NCBI GenBank assembly: GCA_951406725.2
Contig: OX597819.1
Location: 100,936,001 to 101,000,000, forward strand
DNA length: 64,000 nt
DNA from: Octopus vulgaris
Lineage: Eukaryota
Direction of reading: 5' to 3'
The notes below the pieces were generated by a model, which was not told the DNA's origin, ran no database searches, and worked only from the letters and a program-made list of their open reading frames with translations. The translations under genes were made by a program, and so were the position numbers. Every line of letters begins with the position of its first letter. The first letter of the stretch is position 1. This document shows positions 3,211 to 53,750 of the stretch, piece by piece.

Positions 3211-3411
3211 ATATATATATATATATAAGAGTTTTCCTCATGATAGATCGCTAGACACTACAACATTTAAAAATTTTCTCTCTTTGTTTATTTCAGCATT
3301 CCTTTTTGTCGAAGTAAAGAAATAGGTATTTCGTCTGTCTTTGCGTTTTGAGTTCAAATTCTAATAATAATATCTAAATTAATAAAGTTTGAATATTCAT
3401 TCATTTATGAA

Positions 3412-3459
<48 letters not shown>

Positions 3460-3488
3460 ATACACACACACACACACATACACACACA

Positions 3489-3528
<40 letters not shown>

Positions 3529-3529
3529 T

Positions 3530-5634
3530 ATTCTGGATCTCTGCTTCACGAACAATATGGACATCATTCGTGATGTGAAAGTTACACCGACATCAGTTTC
3601 GGATCACAACATAATAGAGCTGTCTATGTTTGGGCCGAAAGTAACCAGAGACATACAGCCTAAAGGAAGCACTCTAAATCTCTCCAATCTGAACTTCCAC
3701 AAAGCAGATTGGAAATCGATCCAAAAAGAGATCCTCAGAGAGGACTGGCCGGAATGTCTCTCCACACCAGACATTGACATGAAACTAGAATGTTTCATGT
3801 CTTCTGTGCAAGCCGTATGCCAGAAATATGTCCCAGAGCACAAGGCCAAAACAAATAGGAGCAAGATTCCAAGAGACAGGAAGATCCTCATGAGACGACG
3901 GACGAAGGTTGCAAATCGTCTCAACCAACATCCCAAAAGTAGCGAAACGTCCCGCCTAAAATCAACACTGATGGAGATCGAAAAAAGGCTGCAACAATCC
4001 TATGTGAAGGAGAAAGCAGACAAAGAAGCCTGGGTTATAAAAAACATTAAATCAAACCCAAAGGCCTTCTTTCATTACGCAAAAGAAACAGTCTCATTGC
4101 ACTACAAGATAGGACCCCTCCTCCAAAAAAATGGCTCCCTCACAGACAGTCCAACTATGATCAGTAAGATGCTGAATGACCAGTTCAAAAGTGTCTTTCC
4201 CACCCCGTTGGAACACAGACAAGTGAACGAACCAGTGGACTTCTTTGCCGCCTCACCTATAACCAGCGAGGCGGTTACAATAGAATGTATTGAGATTAGC
4301 GAAAAAGATGTCCTACTAGCCATAGATGAAGTGGACACAAACTCAGCTGCTGGTCCAGACGGTTTCCCAGCCATCCTCCTCAAAGCGTGTAAGCATGCCC
4401 TGGCAAAACCCCTCAAGATTCTCTTCCAGATCTTTCTTGCGAATGGCAAACTGCCAAGCAAGATGAAGGTGGGAATAATATGCCCAATACATAAAGGGGG
4501 AAGTAGAGCAGATGCCAAAAACTATAGGCCTATCTTTCTGACTTCACACATCAGCAAAGTAATGGAAAGGATTGTCAGAAAGAAACTAATCGCATTCCTT
4601 GAGGAAAATAACTTGCTGAGTAATACCCAGCATGGTTTTCGACCAGGTAGGAGCTGCCTGACCCAGCTCTTACAGCATTATGACTGGGTGTTGAGGCAAC
4701 ATATCAAATGTGGACGTAATCTACCTTGATTTTGCAAAAGCTTTTGACAAGGTGGATCATGGTATGATATGCCACAAACTACGTGACCTCGGCATAGCTG
4801 GAAAACTTGGAGTGTGGTTGCATGACTTCCTGAAAGATAGGAGTCGGGCAGTAGTGTTTAATGGAGCCACCTCTATGAACACACAAATAGTGAGCGGTGT
4901 TTCACAGAGCACTGTCTTGGGACCACTGCTTTTTATAGTGGCCCTCTCAGATATGCCCTCAAATGCCCGGCAAGCTATGCAGACGATACGAAAGTCTCGC
5001 AGAAAATACAGAAACCCAGCGAAGTTGCACACCTGCAGCAGGAGTTGGATTCAATCTACAGATGGGCTGAGGATAATAATATGCAGTTTAATGCTGAAAA
5101 ATTCCCCGCCCTGCGCTACCAGCATCCAAAACTGAATATTAAACTTACAGGATACACCGGTCCACAGGGAATTTCAATCCCGGAGAGAAGACGGGAGAGG
5201 TATGCAGTAATATATGTCTGGAAGATCCCGGAAGGAATTGTGCCAACTTTTGGAATTGTAAGCTACACCAATGCTAGAACGGGACGACACTGCATAGTGC
5301 CAAAGATCCCAGCAATGCCATCACGCTACAGGACCAGTTTCTGCAATAGCCTGGGTTTCAAGGGCCCACAGCTTTTTAATATTCTCCCAAAGAGTCTGAG
5401 GAACTTGCACAAAGTAGATGTAGCGGTTTTTAAATCAAAACTGGACATCTTCCTGTCAAGAGTCCCAGATGAACCTACCTCATGGCAAGAGGTGCAAATG
5501 AGAGTAGCTGTATCAAACTCCATTCTTCACCAAGTGCCACATATTAGACGAGGTTCGTCGCAATAACAGTGTAGCACAAAACGGCGGTGCATCAGCATGG
5601 CCGCAGCTCTGAGCTGAAACTAGAAAAAAAAAAA
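3530..5634 (+). mobile_element. CR1-clade LINE, 5'-truncated, frameshifted ORF2 (endonuclease C-terminus + reverse transcriptase)
   Basis: Motifs: LDLCFTNN and SDHN (APE C-terminus), NFHKADW, GPDGFP, NYRPIFLTSHISKVMERIV, QHGFRPGRSCLTQLL, DVIYLDFAKAFDKVDH, SYADDTK (YADD at 4976-4987, shifted frame) and RRERY. There are frameshifts near 4700 and 4970 and an internal deletion near 5180. The element ends in an A-rich tail. Confidence 0.93.
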
Positions 5635-10935: not shown

Positions 10936-11340
10936 TGCTGTGTGGTAAGTAGCTTGCTTACCAGCCGCATGGTTCCGGGTTCATTCCCACTGCGTAACAC
11001 CTTGGGTAAGTGTCTTCTACTATAGCCTCGGACGGACCAAAGCTTTGTGAGTGGATTTGGTAGACGGAAATTGAAAGAAGCCCGTTCTATATATGTATAT
11101 ATACATGTGCGTGCATATGTTTGTATGTCTGTGCTTGTCCCCCTCCCAACATCGCCTGACCACCGATGGTGGTGTATTTACGTCCATGTAACTTAGCGGT
11201 TCGGCAAAAGTGACCAATAGAATAAGTACTAGGCTTACAAAAAATAAGTCCTCGGATCGATTTGGTCGATTAAAGGCGGCACTCCAGCATGGCTGCAGTC
11301 AAATGACTGAAACAAGTAAGAGAGTAAAGAGTAAAGAGTA
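10936..11340 (+). mobile_element. tRNA-derived SINE family A copy
   Basis: GCTGTGTGGTAAGTAGCTTGCTTACC...GGTTCATTCCC...CCTTGGGTAAGTG, a central microsatellite, and a 3' tail GGCGGCACTCCAGCATGG...GACTGAAACAAGTAA. Confidence 0.85.
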
Positions 11341-12385: not shown

Positions 12386-13243
12386 AGACGAGATCGGATC
12401 AATAAGTATCCAACTGTTACCATCGCAACGAAGCTAAAGCACGCAGAGTGAAGCCGCTTAGCAAAGATTGACAATGAACTCTGCTCTGCTTGCGCACTAA
12501 GTTTTAACCTTCTAGCTCATTTCTTCTGTTTGCAGCAGTGCTTGTGTGTAGCGTGTGATCGTCTCATTGACCCTGACAGAGTAAGATGTCATGCCGGTAC
12601 CTGCTCAGACGTCTGCGCAAAGTTGCAGAAGGTGTATGGAGCGGAGTGTAAGAACCGTACACAAGTGTAAGAGTAGTTCAGACTTTTAAAAGATGGCGGA
12701 AAAAATGTCGATATCGACGGACATTCTGGGAGATCCACAACCAGCAGTGAGAAAAACATCGCAGATGTGGGTGCAGCTGTGAAGAGTAATCGTCGAATCA
12801 CCAGCCTTGAGATATGATGATATATGAGGATGTATAGATTAGATACAGTTCAGTTCAGTCCATTATTACTGACGATTTGGGTATGAGACGCGTGTCTGAC
12901 AAGTTTTTGCCAAAACTGCTTTCTGATGACGAGAAAAGACACAAAATCTCTTTGATTTTGTCTAGAAAGATGAAAACATTTTGAAAACTTTGCGTTGGCC
13001 TCTGAGCAAGTATCGCTTGGCAAAATTTGAAGCAGATTCTCTCTCATGGTCAATGCGACGATCACACTTTACACACCTTACTTCCAAGCACTGGTGTAAA
13101 CAGCAGAAGTAAGCTAGTACGTTAAAACTTAGTTCACATGCACACCAAAGTTCAAGGTCAATCGCTTCCCAGCAGCGTAACTCTGCATACTTTAACCTCG
13201 TTACTATGGCAACAATCCAGATACTTATTGATCAGATACGTGT
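12386..13243 (+). mobile_element. Internally deleted mariner/Tc1 transposon with both TIRs
   Basis: TIRs of ~65 bp: left GATCAATAAGTATCCAACTGTTACCATCGCAACGAAGCTAAAGCACGCAGAG, right CTCTGCATACTTTAACCTCGTTACTATGGCAACAATCCAGATACTTATTGATC. Decayed N-terminal transposase LQKVYGAEC..RTQV*E*FRLLKDG...DGHSGRSTTS (mariner HTH region). Confidence 0.85.
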
Positions 13244-13384
13244 GTATGCATTCATACATACATACATACATACATGCACACATACATACATACATACATA
13301 CATACATACATACATACATACATACATACATACATACATACATACATGCATGCATATATATTAATGGTGTGAAACTGAATAATA

Positions 13385-14228
13385 CCCTCTGGTTGATAAC
13401 TGATGAAGAATTAGGGATATTCTGGGTCTGTCTTTCGTCCATTTTTGCACTCAATATATCTTATACGTCTTTTACTTGTCCTTCGTGCATTTACTATATA
13501 TATATTTCATTTATTAAGCAAAGGCACACAACGTCCCCTGGTTTTTATTAACAATAAGTTAGTTATATATCCTTGCGACTCTATTTCTAACCATTCCTCT
13601 TTCACTTTTCTTGTCTCTTCCTTTCTGTTTATCTTTCTCTTTTGCACTCTTCTATTTCTAGCCTTTCTCCTTTCCTCTCTGTCGCTCTCTCTTTCTATCT
13701 CTCCCTCTCCTTTGTCTTTTTTCTCCTCTGCAGGCTGCTGACACTTGACTACTGGCCAGGCAATCTTTCTCTCTTTGTTTTTTACACCGGTAGCGCAGCT
13801 GACTGGTCCTAAATTCTCTGTGTCCCACTGGTACATGTCTTGCTATTTTCTAATCCTTTACGATGTGCCTATCAGCGTTACCCAACATTTATGTCTTTTT
13901 GGCCTTGAGGCTATATTTTGCTAGTTTCATATTCAGTTCGAACTAGTCATTCGTCCGTGGTCTCAAATTACATTTATTCACTTTCGTATGTCCAGTTCTG
14001 TATTCTTGTTATACTTGTAATGTTTGATCTCGGCCCCATATACTCCGCAACTTTCGCGGGTGCCGCCAGCATGGGAGGCCCATCAATCTTATCATTAATG
14101 GTGCGATATTGAGCAATATCATTTGGTTGATAACCGATGAAGAAATAGAGATCTTCTGTGTCTATCTTTCGTCCATTTCTGCACTCAAAATATGCTATAT
14201 GTGTTTTACTTGTAGTTTGTGTATTTGC
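13385..14228 (+). mobile_element. Element remnant bounded by ~105-bp diverged direct repeats (possibly Penelope-like terminal repeats)
   Basis: TGGTTGATAAC(T/C)GATGAAGAA...TCTTTCGTCCATTT(T/C)TGCACTCAA...TTTTACTTGT occurs at 13389-13492 and 14126-14228. Confidence 0.55.
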
Positions 14229-14269
14229 AATTCATCGGAGGTAACGTGAACCTGTATTTGTGTTATATT

Positions 14270-14560
14270 GTGATAGAGGTTTATTGCCTCTGGAAAAACT
14301 TTTGAAATTGTAAATTGTAAAATTGTTAACTGTAAAATTTGGAATTTTTGTGAAATTTTTCAATTTTTGTAAAATTTTGGAAACTTTGTAAAATTATTGG
14401 AAAAAAAAAAGAACATTGTTTTAGAGAAGCGAGAGTCGGCGGGCGCTTTTTGACTTCTCCCATCACCATCTTCATCCACCACCACCATCATCCATTAATG
14501 TCTTTGTCCAGCCCGTAGCTACTCTGTGTGCTGCACTTGTGGCAAATTAAATGAAATAAA
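14270..14560 (+). mobile_element. 3' UTR of an upstream, 5'-truncated relative of the Tx1-like element
   Basis: Homologous to 16560-16802: GAGGTTT..CCTC hairpin, GTTTTAGAGAAGCG.AGTCGGCGGGCGCTTTTTG.CTTCTCCCATC, CATTAATGTC...GTCCAGCC, and an end at GAAATAAA immediately before GTAGCTTGCTAAC. Confidence 0.8.
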
Positions 14561-14573
14561 GTAGCTTGCTAAC

Positions 14574-14620
14574 GCACATGCGCAGTTAGTCAGTTGCTTC
14601 CTGTTCAGCCAGAGTGGACG
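14574..14620 (+). promoter_or_regulatory. Putative internal Pol II promoter at element 5' end
   Basis: GCACATGCGCA (NRF1-like), Inr-like TTAGTC/TCAGTT at 14586-14595, CTTCCTG (ETS-like) and DPE-like GGACG at 14616-14620. Confidence 0.35.
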
Positions 14621-15273
14621 CGAGTCAACCAGCTCCGTCCAATTAAAGAAAAAAGACCAAAAACGGAAAGTTGTCGAGGTAAGTGATTTTGTTTATTGTG
14701 AGTTGGGCATAATTTATTGCGTGCCAATTATTATTTCAGTAAGTTGTGTCCAACTCTGAGACAATTTCGCCTGCTCTCGGCGGCTGCCGTTTTTGTGTTC
14801 ATTGAAAAAAAAAAGAAAAAACAGTGGAGGGGCGTATCCTCGGAATTCAATACAGTTACTGTTAAAATTACCGTTGGCGGTAGCCAGTGCTGTGTTTGGG
14901 TTTGTTGAATTTATTCCCTTGTCAATTTATTCCCTTCGCAAGAAAATTATAAAAATAAGCCACTATTGGATTACCTTTCGGACCCATTTTTGTGGAGGTT
15001 GTGTTGCAGTTGCGGCGTTCCAGGTTCAACCCAGGCCGGGAGTACCGCAAGGTCAGCATATTTTTGCTGTGTTTTTTCTGTTTATTAACTTTCTTTTGAA
15101 CTTCATTTACCCCCCTTTTGTTTTTTTTCTTTATTGCGACTTTCCGTTGATTTCTTCCCTTCTGTTGTGCTTTCTCCTTTTTGTTTTTTCAAAAATCTAT
15201 CAAATTTTATTTGGACTTTTGAACTTTTTTCTTCTTGCTTTTTGAGTTTAATTTGAATATATTTAAAAAAAAC

Positions 15274-16454
15274 ATGGCAATGAAAAATAACAAAATTTTG
15301 GAGTGGGAAATCATACCACCTAAAAAGTGGTTAAAAGACCGTGAAGATAGGACGGTGGTGTTGAGAACCTACTCCAAGGCACTCGACACCATCGCCCTAT
15401 TCGAAAAGACGGCAATTGAAAAGGAGTTGGAAGAGTATTTGCCAACAATTAAATTCATTTCCAGGGGTGTCAAGTATGCAACGGTGTGGTTGCTATTTGA
15501 CACCCCTGAAGAGGCTTGCAAATTTGCTAGCAAACCCCTGGAGGGTAAGGAAATCTTATTCCTGCCCACGTACAAAAAAAGAAATTGATGAAAGCTTGGA
15601 TCTGCGGGCTGCCACCCGACATAGAACCCGAGTGGATAGAGGAGACTATCCGCCGGGGTCTGGGTGGCAGCGAAACTAAGCTCCTTAATGTAAAAGTTCT
15701 TCCTGCGGCTGCTTGGGTTGGGTCAAAAGCAATTTTGACCCTGTGGACCCAATCAGCCAATCTGGTTCTTCCAGATTTTTTGAAAATGGCCGGGTGCAGG
15801 TACCCGGTGATGCTTGAGGGTCGCCCCACTAAGTGTCATCGGTGCTTGGAGTCCGGCCATATAAAGAAGAACTGTCCCCGGGAACAAAATAGGATCCCGG
15901 AACAGTTAAGTAAAACCCCCCTAGAAGAGGGAGTGATAACGGCCGAGAAAGCAGAGGACTCCTCAAACAGAGGCCGAAAGAGGAAGGTGAGCAACAATGG
16001 GTGCTCACCAAAGGATAATAGGGATGAGGAGAGGAAGGCGAATCTTCCGGCCACGGAGGAGACGCACCCTCCCTCAGTTGAAAAGGGAAAAAAAAAGAAA
16101 AAGAGGAAGAAAAACGGGACATTGCCGGCTGTCAGTGACATAGCACCGGAATGTCCCGGAACTACGTCGGATGGGGTTGTGCCACCGACAAGAGAAGGAA
16201 TACCGTTGGCGGGAACTGCGCCGCCAACGAAAGAACTGAACGTATTGGTCCTCTTCTATAGAGGAGGCGAAATTGAAAAGGTGATGGAAGAGCACCACAA
16301 GGGAGCACCTTTAGCCTTCACACAGGACCCCGAATGGCCTCCGCAGGTAGCTGTGGAGGCCGTGGCGTTCGACGTGACGCTTGGGCTAATGGAGCTCAAT
16401 GAAGATTATAACTTGGTCTCGGCGACGCAAACTCGGAACTTGATTACGTTCTGA
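15274..16454 (+). CDS. L1/Tx1-type ORF1 nucleic-acid-binding protein (~393 aa), split by a one-base frameshift in an A7 run at 15574-15580
   Basis: ATG in AAACATGG context. ORF 15274-15588 overlaps ORF 15585-16454 in the -1 frame. The joined protein has AWICGLPPDI..., LPDFLKMAGCRYPVMLEGRPTKCHRCLESGHIKKNCP (CX2CX4HX4C), basic NLS-like RGRKRK and KKKKKRKK, and a low-complexity C-terminal region. Confidence 0.8.
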
Positions 16455-16800
16455 GGGAGGCGTGGTTGATGGTGGAGGGCGCGGGCACAAGCTATTTCGA
16501 GGACGATATGTAATTATTGAACTGTTATTATTAGTAATGGACTGCTAAGTCCAAAAATTGAAAAATAAGAGGTTTAATACCTCGTTTTGTAATAATGGAC
16601 TAAGTCCAAAAATTGGAAAAATTGTAAGAGGTTTAATACCTCGTTTTGTGTTTTAGAGAAGCGAAAGTCGGCGGGCGCTTTTTGTCTTCTCCCATCCTTA
16701 TCATCTTTCTTTCATTATCATTCACTTCATTAATGTCCTCGTCCAGCCAGCAAAGCTAACTTAATCTGTGTACTGCCTTTATGGCAAATGTTTTGAAATA

Positions 16801-17195
16801 AAGTAGCTTGCTAACCAACCACATGGTTCCGGGTTCAGTCCCACTGCGTGGCATCTTGGGCAAGTGTCTTCTGCTATAGCCCCGAGCCGACCAATGCCTT
16901 GTGAGTGGATTTGGTAGACGGAAACTGAAAGAAGCCTGTCGTATATATGTATATATATATAAGTGTGTGTGAATATGTTTGTGTGTCTGTGTTTGTTCCC
17001 CTAGCATTGCTTGACAACCGATGCTGGTGTGTTTACGTCCCCGTCACTTAGCGGTTCGGCAAAAGAGACCGATAGAATAAGTACTGGGCTTACAAAGAAT
17101 AAGTCCCGGGGTCGATTTGCTCGACTAAAGGCGGTGCTCCAGCATGGCCGCAGTCAAATGACTGAAACAAGTAAAAAGAGTAAAAAAGAAAAAAG
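16801..17195 (+). mobile_element. SINE family A copy interrupted in its tRNA head by the Tx1-like insertion
   Basis: Nearly identical to 35172-35540, but it begins at AAGTAGCTTGCTAACCAACC. The first ~22 nt (GGCGCAGGAGTGGCTGTGTGGT) are absent. Confidence 0.92.
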
Positions 17196-17333
17196 AGTAT
17201 ACAAACATATATGTACGTACCTACATCTACATGTATATATACATGCATACATAAATATATATACGTGAGTACAGGACACTGCAACTATATAATATTAGTG
17301 AGTAGGTTTTTTTTACTTATTATATATATATAG

Positions 17334-18619: not shown

Positions 18620-19260
18620 GCTCAAAATTTTGGGGAAGGCCGGAAGTTTTTGGGGAGGGTGCTATTCGATTAGATCGACAGCAGTATGAAACTGGTACTT
18701 AATTTATTGACGCTGAAATGATGAAAGACAAAGTCGACCACGGCGGTATATGAACACAGAACGTAAAGACAGACGAAATACCTATTTATTTACTACCCCC
18801 ATGGGGCTTAACACAGAGAGGACAAACAAGAACGGAAAAACGGATTAAGTCGATTATATCGACCCCAGTGCTTAAATGGTACTTATTTAATCGACCCCGA
18901 AGGGATGAAAGGTTAAGTCGACCTTGGTGGAATTTGAACTCAGAACGTATCGACAGACGAAATACTGCTCAGCATTTCGCCCGGCGTGCTAAAGTTTCTG
19001 CCTGCTCGACGCCTTCTGTAGCTCGAATATTCTTTTCTACTCTAGGCACAAGGCCCGAAATTTTGGGGGAGGGGCCCAGTCGATTAGATCGACCCCAGTA
19101 CGCAACTTAATTTATCGACCCCGAAGGGATGAAAAGTAAAGTCGACCTTGGTGGAATTTGAACTCAAAATATAAAGACGATGGAATACTGCTAAGCATTT
19201 TGCCCTGCGTGCTAATGATTCTTATTTTTTTATTGCCCACAATCGGTTAAACATAGAGGG
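18620..19260 (-). mobile_element. Cluster of SINE family B units
   Basis: Three repeats of CGACCCCGAA.GGATGAAAG...AAGTCGACC...GAATTTGAACTC. Confidence 0.85.
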
Positions 19261-35150: not shown

Positions 35151-35540
35151 GGCGCAGGAGTGGGTGTGTGGTAAGTAGCTTGCTAACCAACCACATAGTT
35201 CCGGGTTCAGTCCCACTGCGTGGCATCTTGGGCAAGTGTCTTCTGCTATAGCCCCGGGCCGACAATGCCTTGTGAGTGGATTTGGTAGACGGGAACTGAA
35301 AGAAGCCTGTCGTATATATGTATATATATGTGTTTGTGTGTCTGTGTTTGTCCCCTAGCATTGCTTGACAACCGATGCTGGTGTGTTTACGTCCCCGTCA
35401 CTTAGCGGTTCGGCAAAAGAGACCGATAGAATAAGTACTGGGCTTACAAAGAATAAGACCCGGGGTCGATTTGCTCAACTAAAGGCGGTGCTCCAGCATG
35501 GCCGCAGTCAAATGACTGAAACAAGTAAAAGAGTGAAAGA
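35151..35540 (+). mobile_element. Full-length SINE family A (reference for the empty target site)
   Basis: GGCGCAGGAGTGGGTGTGTGGTAAGTAGCTTGCTAACCAACC, B-box GGTTCAGTCCC, CTTGGGCAAGTG core, central (TA)/(TG) tract, and tail GGCGGTGCTCCAGCATGGCCGCAGTCAAATGACTGAAACAAGTAAAAGA. Confidence 0.92.
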
Positions 35541-45009: not shown

Positions 45010-46590
45010 AAAACGCTGTCTCACCCATTGGACCATTGATCGATGATAACGGCATTCCTCAACACGATGCTAAAGAAATGGCAGAAATACTGGAGAAGCA
45101 ATACTGCTCTGTCTGTGATCCTACTGATATTGACATAAGAGAAGCGAACGAAGTTGATTCTCAGCATAAAATCTCGTACATAACCTTCACTGCCTCAGAC
45201 ATCATAGCAGCAATAAATAGGTTCAAATACTATTCTGCTGTAAGCCCTGGTAGATTCCCCGTTAAATTCCTGAAAGAATGTAGACACCAACTTGCAGTAC
45301 TTCTGACGAACCTCTGGAGAAATTCTTTAGACTCAGGTTATATACCGAAGCACTTCCTATTCCACTCTGTCATCCCGGTTTTCAATCAGGGAAACAGATC
45401 CCTCGCAGTCAATTATCACTCAATCTCAGTCCTTAAAATGCTTGAAAGAGTGGTAAGATCAAGGATAGCTGACTTCCTGGAGACCCACAGACTCCTAAAT
45501 GCAAATCAGCGTGTATTTCGCTGTGGCAGGGACTGTTTAACACAGCTCTTACACCACAATGAAGATATACTTAAAGCCTTGGGAACAGGTTCGAACTCTG
45601 ATGTCATATATCTTGACTTCAGTAAAGCGTTCGACAGGGTGGACCATAATATCTTACTCTCAAAATTGGCAAATGTAGGAATCCGTGGAACACTTTCTAC
45701 ACTGGATTAAGTATTTCCTGGCGGATAAAACTCAAGAAGTTGTGGTCGATAACGTCCACTGAAGCCCAGCAAAAGCTACCAGTGGTGTCCCTCTGTGGAC
45801 TTCTTAGGCTCGCTCCTCTTTATAATTTACCGTGTCTTAAATCACTGCAAAGTGAAAATATTTGCTGATGACACTAAACTCTAGCAAATCATCAATGAAG
45901 AAGAAGACCGAACTCAACTTCAGTCTGATCTCTATGCTGTGAGTCAATGGGCAGACAAAAATAAAATGCAACTGAACGAGGAAAAATTTGAACTGATGCA
46001 TTTTGGAAGAAAGTCTATACTAAAACAGCCATACCCTCTTCCTTCTGGGGAACAGCTCACGGCATCTAATAATATCAGAGACCCGGGTGTAATTGTTGAT
46101 AACACATCAACAATAAGGTTGATATAGCATGTAGGATGAGCTCCTGGATTTTAAGAACCTTCCAGCCAGAGAACAAAGTGTCATCATTCCACTTTTCTCA
46201 ACATTGCCTAAACGACCTGAACATTAGTTTCAAGGTTCATCCAAAGCTTGGACCACGGGCCATACGTCCCTTGGTCAACTCAGGATCACAACATATAGGT
46301 ACACTGCGATATAATTTATTTTCTTCAACAGGCCCTGCCCTGATTAACATTGTCCCAAAACTGATTAAAGAGGAAATGGATCCCATCACCTTTAAACGGA
46401 GTCAGGATAGATTTCTTCAAGGAATACCAGATAAGCTACCTATACCAGGATATAACTCACTCAACAAGAACACTCTACTGAATGGATCATAAGCAAAACT
46501 TGACTAAAAAGGATTTAGATAATCCTGTCAGTTGGTGCCATTAAGTTAGACATGACCTGGACCAATCTTTGGTCGAAACATATCTAAGTT
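45010..46590 (+). mobile_element. Decayed CR1-type LINE ORF2 (RT) with 3' end
   Basis: Motifs: FLKECRHQLA, KMLERVVR, GRDCLTQLLHH, DVIYLDFSKAFDRVDH, FADDTKL (~45860), WADKNKMQLNEEKF and FKRSQDRFLQGIPD. Several frameshifts and stops. Short repeated tail TATCTAAGTTTATCTAGGTT. Confidence 0.9.
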
Positions 46591-53254: not shown

Positions 53255-53750
53255 CTGCTCTATGCACAAAGGCCGAAATTACATCAACCCAAGTTCGCAA
53301 CTGGTTTTTAATTTATCAACCCCACGAGGATGAAAGGCAAGGTCGATCCCCGCGGAATTTGAACTGAGAACGTAAAGACAGACGAAATACCTATTTCTTT
53401 ACTGCCCACAAGGGGCTACACACAGAGTGGACAAACAAGAACAGACAAACGGATTAAGTCGATTATGTCGATCCCAGAGCGTAACTGGTACTTATTTAAT
53501 CGACCCCGAAAGGATGAAAGGCAAAGTCGACCTCGGCGGAATTTGAACTCAGAACGTAGCGGCAGACGAAATACCTATTTCTTTACTACCCACAAAGAAC
53601 TAAATACAGAGAGGACAAACAAGGACAGACAAACGGATTAAGACGATTATATCGACCCCAGTGCGTAACTGGTACTTATTTAATCGACCCCGAAAGGATG
53701 AAAGGCAAAGATGACCTCGGCGGAATTTGAACGTCTCTACCAGCTCGCCA
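53255..53750 (-). mobile_element. Trimeric SINE family B (184-bp period)
   Basis: GACGAAATACCTATTTCTTTACT at 53381 and 53565, with three GGATGAAAGGCAA cores. Confidence 0.88.

Follow-up and report, generated by a model that had tools for sequence, protein, structure and literature searches.

Within the 64,000-nt stretch of Octopus vulgaris DNA analysed here (the window), positions 14231 to 17199 hold two repeat units, arranged head to tail, that end on the same base of a SINE. Alignment within the window matched positions 14417-14573 with 16649-16815 at 78% identity over 169 columns (E 1e-30), and both copies close with an identical 8-nt tail followed by an identical 13-nt target. This exact 13-mer occurs four times in the window: at 14561, at 16803 and in the intact SINEs at 35175 (+) and 60382 (-). 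In the 2.8-Gb genome, the junction pattern gave 836 exact matches versus none for its reversed control; the shared pattern is not due to chance. A first-pass annotation had described the upstream copy as a diverged 3′ UTR homologue ending at the same target, which the identity, tail and target bear out, while the start of the copy moves from 14270 to 14231. The features of the locus are as follows:

13360..14235, no strand assigned: older dispersed repeat, the upstream flank, outside the system; sharing 70-79% identity with its other copies and showing a period of ~734 nt
14231..14235, +: microhomology of 5 nt where the old repeat meets the B remnant; the match to B copies begins at 14231
14231..14560, +: remnant of family B, 330 nt, broken at its 5′ end, with the last ORF1 codons, a stop (14247-14249) and the 3′ UTR
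14305-14339: 15-nt tandem duplication inside the B remnant
14417..14560, +: 3′ core common to the ORF1-only families A and B, whose terminal AATAAA (14555-14560) directly abuts the target, no poly(A) tail intervening
14561..14573, +: SINE target copy between the two units, most likely brought in as the 5′ end of element A, judging from its relatives
14574..16802, +: full-length ORF1-only element A, 2,229 nt, with 5′ UTR, ORF1 and a 3′ UTR ending in AATAAA
15274-16454, +: ORF1 of element A, with one frameshift near 15575-15590
~15831-15878, +: CCHC zinc knuckle of the element A ORF1 (zf-CCHC, E 0.021, which falls short of the Pfam cut-off)
16803..16816, +: genomic target copy of the resident SINE
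16817..17199, +: rest of the host SINE (body, then tail), 93% identical to the intact copy at 35175

The older upstream repeat is cut ~10 nt short of the T-run and microsatellite in which other copies end (5 of 9 non-self loci). None of the public contigs aligned to the locus bridges the 14235/14236 junction, which thus rests on one assembly. One contig of run X6 (293 nt, depth 17, 7 differences) fits the old repeat over 13971-14235 and then departs with 28 unlike letters, a weak hint of another allele at the locus. Both target copies at the locus carry the common allele. The ORF1 of element A changes frame at 15573, and an extra A is commonly found behind this position in contigs of four public runs, which derive from many copies. 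The window locus is one ordinary, damaged member of a wider system.

The upstream unit and the autonomous LINEs

Clear homology between the upstream copy and element A is limited to the last ~145 nt. A search with 14270-14573 yielded 1,512 candidates, of which 40 were scored, giving 39 non-self matches at 82-91%. The first-pass annotation had proposed to extend such relatives in the 5′ direction and see whether they lead to an ORF2 with APE and RT domains. Among 29 fetched non-self loci, the upstream sequence includes an ORF1 homologue, or the 3′ portion of one, in 28; the last locus holds a truncated copy preceded by the SINE head. Family B is an element of about 2 kb, and its full copies span 2.0-2.5 kb between SINE head and SINE body. 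The remnant in the window aligns from 14231 to copies of ~2.0 kb, its start falling within the last ORF1 codons, and in an open family B copy the ORF1 stop lies 296 nt before the element end.

These data also bear on the suggestion that the upstream copy could be the autonomous partner of element A. The two share their end site, and autonomous units do occur in such arrays, but in the upstream copy the ORF1 stop is followed directly by the 3′ UTR. Among 129 units extracted from the fetched loci, 104 carry the A/B 3′ core, and none of these 104 is matched by ORF2 or encodes an RT. The 19 RT-bearing units have other 3′ UTRs, with a best local score to the A/B core of at most 37, versus 288 for the core against itself. 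Thus, the upstream copy is not the autonomous partner; the autonomous-partner reading retains only a very slight probability.

Both A and B encode ORF1 only, with no RT in the full unit (2.0-2.5 kb, head to body), and both have an ORF1 homologous to that of a LINE and share its 3′ end. In this they resemble HAL1 (half-L1) elements, described as non-autonomous L1-type elements that encode ORF1 only (PMC5753468). Unlike HAL1 as described there, the octopus ORF1-only elements form several families and are site-specific and array-building. The ORF1 proteins of A and B are 51% identical, and identities between ORF1-only families range from 43 to 51% at the amino acid level.

Autonomous elements of 5.4-5.7 kb are present at the same SINE base, elsewhere than the upstream copy. 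Their ORF2 (1,140 aa) contains Exo_endo_phos, RVT_1 and zf-RVT domains (PF03372, PF00078 and PF13966, all above cut-off), and its closest solved protein is human L1 ORF2p, aligned over the full length (E 7e-66 versus 1e-21 for R2). Uninterrupted ORF2 frames of 1,150 codons were found at two loci, L130 and L131. Ahead of ORF2 lies an ORF1 of 467 aa with a CCHC zinc knuckle (PF00098, E 4e-5). The N-terminal APE, the RT, the C-terminal zinc motif and the CCHC ORF1 are those of an L1/Tx1-type LINE. We presume that this helper LINE belongs to the Tx1 clade, a label that leans on its target specificity. The helper homologues include an Argonauta protein at 64%, and no named Tx1 reference was present among 97 helper homologues or cluster members.

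The 3′ UTRs of the helper and of A/B agree only in their last ~30 nt, and the ORF1 proteins are 25-31% identical over ~195 aa (E 1e-17 to 1e-23). To judge from the shared site, the shared end and the similar ages, A and B are likely mobilised in trans by the helper ORF2. One array (C2b) has the order SINE head, B, helper, A, SINE body, and its A starts like the A of the window. The window has RT fragments of its own, at 3386-5566 and 45012-45710, which were rejected as candidates for the helper, being decayed debris of distant LINEs.

Occupation of one SINE base across the genome

The target corresponds to bases 25-37 of the SINE, of which intact copies lie at 35151 (+) and 60405 (-), and 61,686 exact empty targets were counted genome-wide. 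The SINE head comprises the 24 nt before the target, or 22 when the shared AA is assigned to the target. That this head is missing upstream of 14561, as noted earlier, was confirmed: it matches in the window only at 10939, 35150 and 60405. No tRNA was recognized by ARAGORN, nor in one copy by Rfam at E values up to 10; motifs resembling A and B boxes were seen by eye.

A, B and the autonomous LINEs all end flush on the same SINE base without a poly(A) tail. An element-end pattern that excluded the target found 1,379 matches (control, 1), of which 910 (66%) are followed by the exact first five target bases (control, 0). Among the first 30 ends in genome order, inspected by eye, 27 are at the site, one lies further inside the SINE, one is at the site in reversed orientation and one is unrelated. 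In these 30, the ends without an exact 5-mer (34% of all ends) mostly precede decayed targets, with three off site. These proportions compare with the more than 20% of flanks that PMC4494074 gives as its rule for a Tx1 target, and the sequence-specific targeting proposed from the window holds genome-wide.

The head-to-tail build-up proposed for the window likewise recurs, in arrays of 2 to at least 15 mixed units. The arrays that were read contain 2, 3, 4, 5 or 8 units, and one has 15 junctions in 35 kb. The genome-wide count called for by the first-pass annotation was carried out as a sample: the first 100 ends on contig C1 represent 90 loci, of which 5 have at least two units, versus 1.1% expected from independent hits, an expectation for which both underlying counts are lower bounds. 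Mixed arrays are thereby shown to be commoner than independent hits on free SINEs predict, and part of the excess may be due to tandem duplication, as in the seven units at C1:223.7 Mb, which are 0.0-0.3% apart. These seven near-identical 2.0-kb units (G000:C1:223689317-223706788, L121-L123) stand ahead of a helper and reflect either repeated insertion or tandem duplication. The 35-kb array (G000:C7:13453000-13492999, L189-L192) consists of very diverse ORF1-only units and LINE remains around its 15 junctions; neighbouring junctions form runs with one common target variant, and the sequence read stops short of the array ends. This array is possibly a source locus or a trap for the family.

The closest relatives of A, 39 loci selected by ORF similarity alone, show how the units behave apart from one another. 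In 38 the SINE head stands directly in front and in one a B unit does; behind the element, 38 have the SINE body and one has other sequence, so that A is alone between head and body in 37. Among the relatives fetched for the two flanks (29 loci and 9 loci), the 14235/14236 junction is not seen again. Two explanations that the first-pass annotation had named as fatal to its proposal, a fixed pair of LTR-like ends and a local segmental duplication, would each account for one ORF flanked by two similar 150-nt stretches. Nevertheless, the stretches are just 78% identical, the flanks are unrelated, and no near-identical terminal repeats occur as a fixed pair with an outer duplication. Because the relatives of A stand alone between SINE head and body, with each unit alone at dozens of loci, both explanations are ruled out for practical purposes.

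Occupied SINE heads show 5.4% mismatch, mostly as private changes, and the head in front of elements looks genomic, although one change, 3 nt ahead of the nick, is common to three copies from the same subfamily. Occupied and empty SINEs differ in body divergence (2.7% versus 5.5%) and in the frequency of A at target base 11 (67% versus 33%), which would reflect either younger SINEs or a preferred allele. A headless target was found behind none of 187 SINE tails in the fetched DNA, so self-targeting was not seen for this SINE. At L120 (G000:C1:68300491) and L089, an element end is joined to a reverse-complement SINE head at the same site, and the target core is palindromic. Folding z-scores of -0.55 for the 3′ core, 0.67 for the tail plus target and -0.69 for the SINE head support no special structure. 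Antisense matches to the target in the 3′ UTR reach 8-9 nt in two autonomous types (equalled in 1 and 2 of 200 shuffles) and 5-7 nt in 11 other units, where they are not significant (9-139 of 200 shuffles); in 114 of 129 units, a 5-6-nt core of the match is located 36-76 nt from the end. As a meaningful feature, this antisense match is only suggestive.

The 5′ target copy and a proposed mechanism of insertion

The target copy at 14561 had been taken as the left target site duplication (TSD) of the element. A target copy is indeed present there, but it is most likely the 5′ end of element A and not a duplication. The evidence comes from the alleles of the SINE: in full-length copies, the left copy is mostly not a duplication, and its sequence varies with the element subfamily instead of matching the allele of the resident SINE. 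In one subfamily with 55 head junctions genome-wide, 48 carry a 1-nt target deletion, 5 carry two other variants and 2 are canonical. The deletion variant occurs at no junction between an element end and a SINE body, and in 13 empty SINEs versus 61,686 canonical ones. It was also present in none of the 3′ copies at 20 single-insertion loci, which were chosen on the variant, so that this test covers the 3′ side only.

In the relatives of A, the allele test covered 36 of the 39 loci (L214, L217 and L231 were dropped). Twelve of these have a resident T at target base 11, and their 5′ copy has A in 11 and the deletion variant in one; the others comprise 22 with A on both sides, one shortened copy and one with the deletion variant. 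Likewise, the helper copies L133, L137 and L139 have insertion variants in common on their 5′ side. Full-length copies overall thus lack what a classical TSD would show, namely identical copies that follow the resident allele. Two full-length exceptions, L167 with a rare resident allele on both sides and L195 with it at all three junctions, retain the resident allele, so overwriting of the target is not obligatory. True duplications are found in truncated copies: L136 has one of 14 nt with a rare allele on both sides, C3b has another, and other truncated copies show duplications of 5-9 nt or the loss of a few head bases. The 13-14-nt target copy at the 5′ end of full-length elements is thereby shown to be subfamily-specific and to replace a true duplication.

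Based on the anatomy of the elements and on the R1/R2 literature (PMC2718515, PMC6895275, PMC7265360), from which its steps are inferred, we propose the following mechanism. The APE endonuclease of the helper would nick the bottom strand after SINE base 24 and prime reverse transcription there. The element RNA would run on into the target and pair with it, as suggested by the AATAAA that is flush with the target and by the missing poly(A) tail. The top strand would be cut ~14 nt downstream. A full-length RNA would start inside the target copy, the cDNA end could then pair with the overhang of the cut target, and it would replace the target from about base 8 on. Each full-length insertion would in this way rebuild head and target ahead of itself for the next insertion. 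With this mechanism and the insertion of B in front of an existing A included, we consider it probable that the locus is a two-unit array, made of a 330-nt B remnant and a full-length A at one fixed SINE base, whose units an L1/Tx1-type LINE with the same target base likely mobilised in trans.

A more tentative extension, which we hold to be rather unlikely, is that element RNAs with target at both ends serve as a guide: the 5′ copy would rebuild the site, and 3′ read-through into the target and the start of the donor-array neighbour would steer some subfamilies to occupied sites with the matching variant. Related B copies (u8, u71 and u113) all end on a rare deletion variant that is nearly confined to occupied sites, and at each of the five loci examined one B subfamily is part of an array; these are hints in that direction. 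If this were true, arrays would be self-templating niches inside the SINE, and the polymorphic SINE would be a natural marker experiment for second-strand priming by APE LINEs. As a separate observation, u0, u23, u24, u5, u16 and u98 are 1-2% apart over their length, yet their first 20-30 bases differ, so that 5′ ends are exchanged between subfamilies.

Order of events and relation to known systems

The first-pass annotation had seen in the missing SINE head a later deletion or rearrangement. A later event is not required: that the head was lost as a truncated copy inserted is no less likely. Among 47 loci inspected by eye with 1.5 kb of upstream sequence, 19 have elements extending past the edge, 8 have the head at or near the break, 4 show clear breaks with unrelated DNA and no head, 2 are atypical and 14, from older families, could not be classed. 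Since headless truncation recurs, head loss at insertion explains the missing head without a later event. At this locus, B would have inserted at the rebuilt site in front of A, stopped at 330 nt and become linked to the upstream repeat via the 5-nt microhomology, losing the SINE head in the process. We give this order a roughly even chance and lean towards it since, as the R1 model would have it, B copies that are nearly identical stand before different partners: u5, u16 and u98 are 0.7-1.2% apart and precede three different units. Both units appear young by their private substitutions (1/301 in B versus 9/1,359 in A, not distinguishable). Nearest-neighbour dating had pointed to an older B, but it was sampling-dependent and was rejected after the private-substitution counts removed the difference.

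The opposite order, in which B came first, with its head already or later lost, and A then inserted behind it at the junction of B end, target and SINE body, is possible but less probable. It needs no SINE head, and an A-type unit is the last one in all nine multi-unit arrays that contain one, as well as in L231, although this sample of arrays was partly picked through B ends and in L151, perhaps also in L217, a different and diverged element comes after A. In L188, L195 and C9a, closer relatives were found for the A unit than for the one preceding it, so that the downstream unit looks younger; at the window locus, by contrast, the unit ages do not differ. Moreover, a junction of this type keeps no more than 2 bases from the target's upstream half. 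A one-step template jump producing both units would agree with the equal ages, with the excess of arrays and with internal junctions that usually carry the variant of the downstream unit, and LINE RTs are reported to switch templates (PMC6895275). We nevertheless regard it as improbable: near-identical B copies with different partners are contrary to a fixed dimer RNA, 38 of the 39 closely related A copies are preceded by no unit, and the single rare allele at the three junctions of L195 fits stepwise insertion.

Parts of this system have known counterparts: transposon-targeting Tx1 elements with tandem passengers, R1 arrays and HAL1 are already known. Tx1-clade LINEs that target transposons include Xenopus Tx1 in Tx1D, and crocodilian Tx1-Mar with SINEU-3 in Mariner-N4_AMi (PMC4494074). 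As in those systems, an APE- and RT-encoding LINE has a repeat as its target, non-autonomous passengers use the same target, and tandems are separated by target duplications. The octopus system differs in that the target is one SINE base with more than 61,000 exact free sites and that the passengers encode ORF1; an element-borne target copy, present in the octopus elements, is not reported in the available text of PMC4494074.

Drosophila R1 is likewise an APE LINE with a 14-nt duplication, forming tandem arrays at its normal site that are split by the duplicated target and have been read as upstream addition (PMC2718515). According to the same source, downstream target present on the RNA is held responsible for its precise 3′ junctions, upstream 28S sequence is carried by melanogaster-type R1 RNAs, true duplications accompany truncated copies, and ancestral-type R1 is reported without upstream target. 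The octopus elements share with R1 the APE LINE, the 14-nt duplications, the tandem arrays and the true duplications in truncated copies; their target is a SINE, whereas that of R1 is 28S rDNA. In melanogaster-type R1, the carried sequence is described as ending 9 nt upstream of the nick, which leads to a deletion; unlike there, the part carried by the octopus elements is the duplicated stretch itself, so the site is rebuilt. For R2, target sequence at the RNA's 5′ end is reported to pair with the target and enable full-length insertion (PMC6895275). R2 as described has a restriction-like endonuclease, rRNA co-transcription and ribozyme cleavage, none of which was seen in the octopus system. 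An annotation of octopus repeats lists 13 recently active L1-Tx1 families, and the word "target" is absent from its main text (PMC13282606). The open literature searched, Repbase, subscription journals and supplements aside, yielded no LINE that targets a SINE and has either ORF1-only passengers or a duplication borne by the element; entries in Repbase or supplements may already name these families or their target.

What is new here is the allele test of the 5′ target copy and the status of the B remnant. How APE LINEs complete the 5′ junction is described as still open (PMC6895275). The site-specific LINEs studied to date lie in near-invariant targets such as rDNA, which hide whether a 5′ copy stems from the chromosome or the RNA; a SINE with common alleles reveals that the target copy travels with the element in most full-length insertions. 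Neither the age of an insertion nor the limits of an element can be read from such element-borne "TSDs". The SINE itself is a niche for a LINE and several ORF1-only hitch-hikers.

Repeat-finder output for the whole window is dominated by microsatellites. Elsewhere in the window, a second SINE-like family is present at 53278-53732 and 18675-19220, with a 184-nt tandem array at 53278, and positions 12500-13230 read by eye like what we take to be a Mariner-type transposase region.
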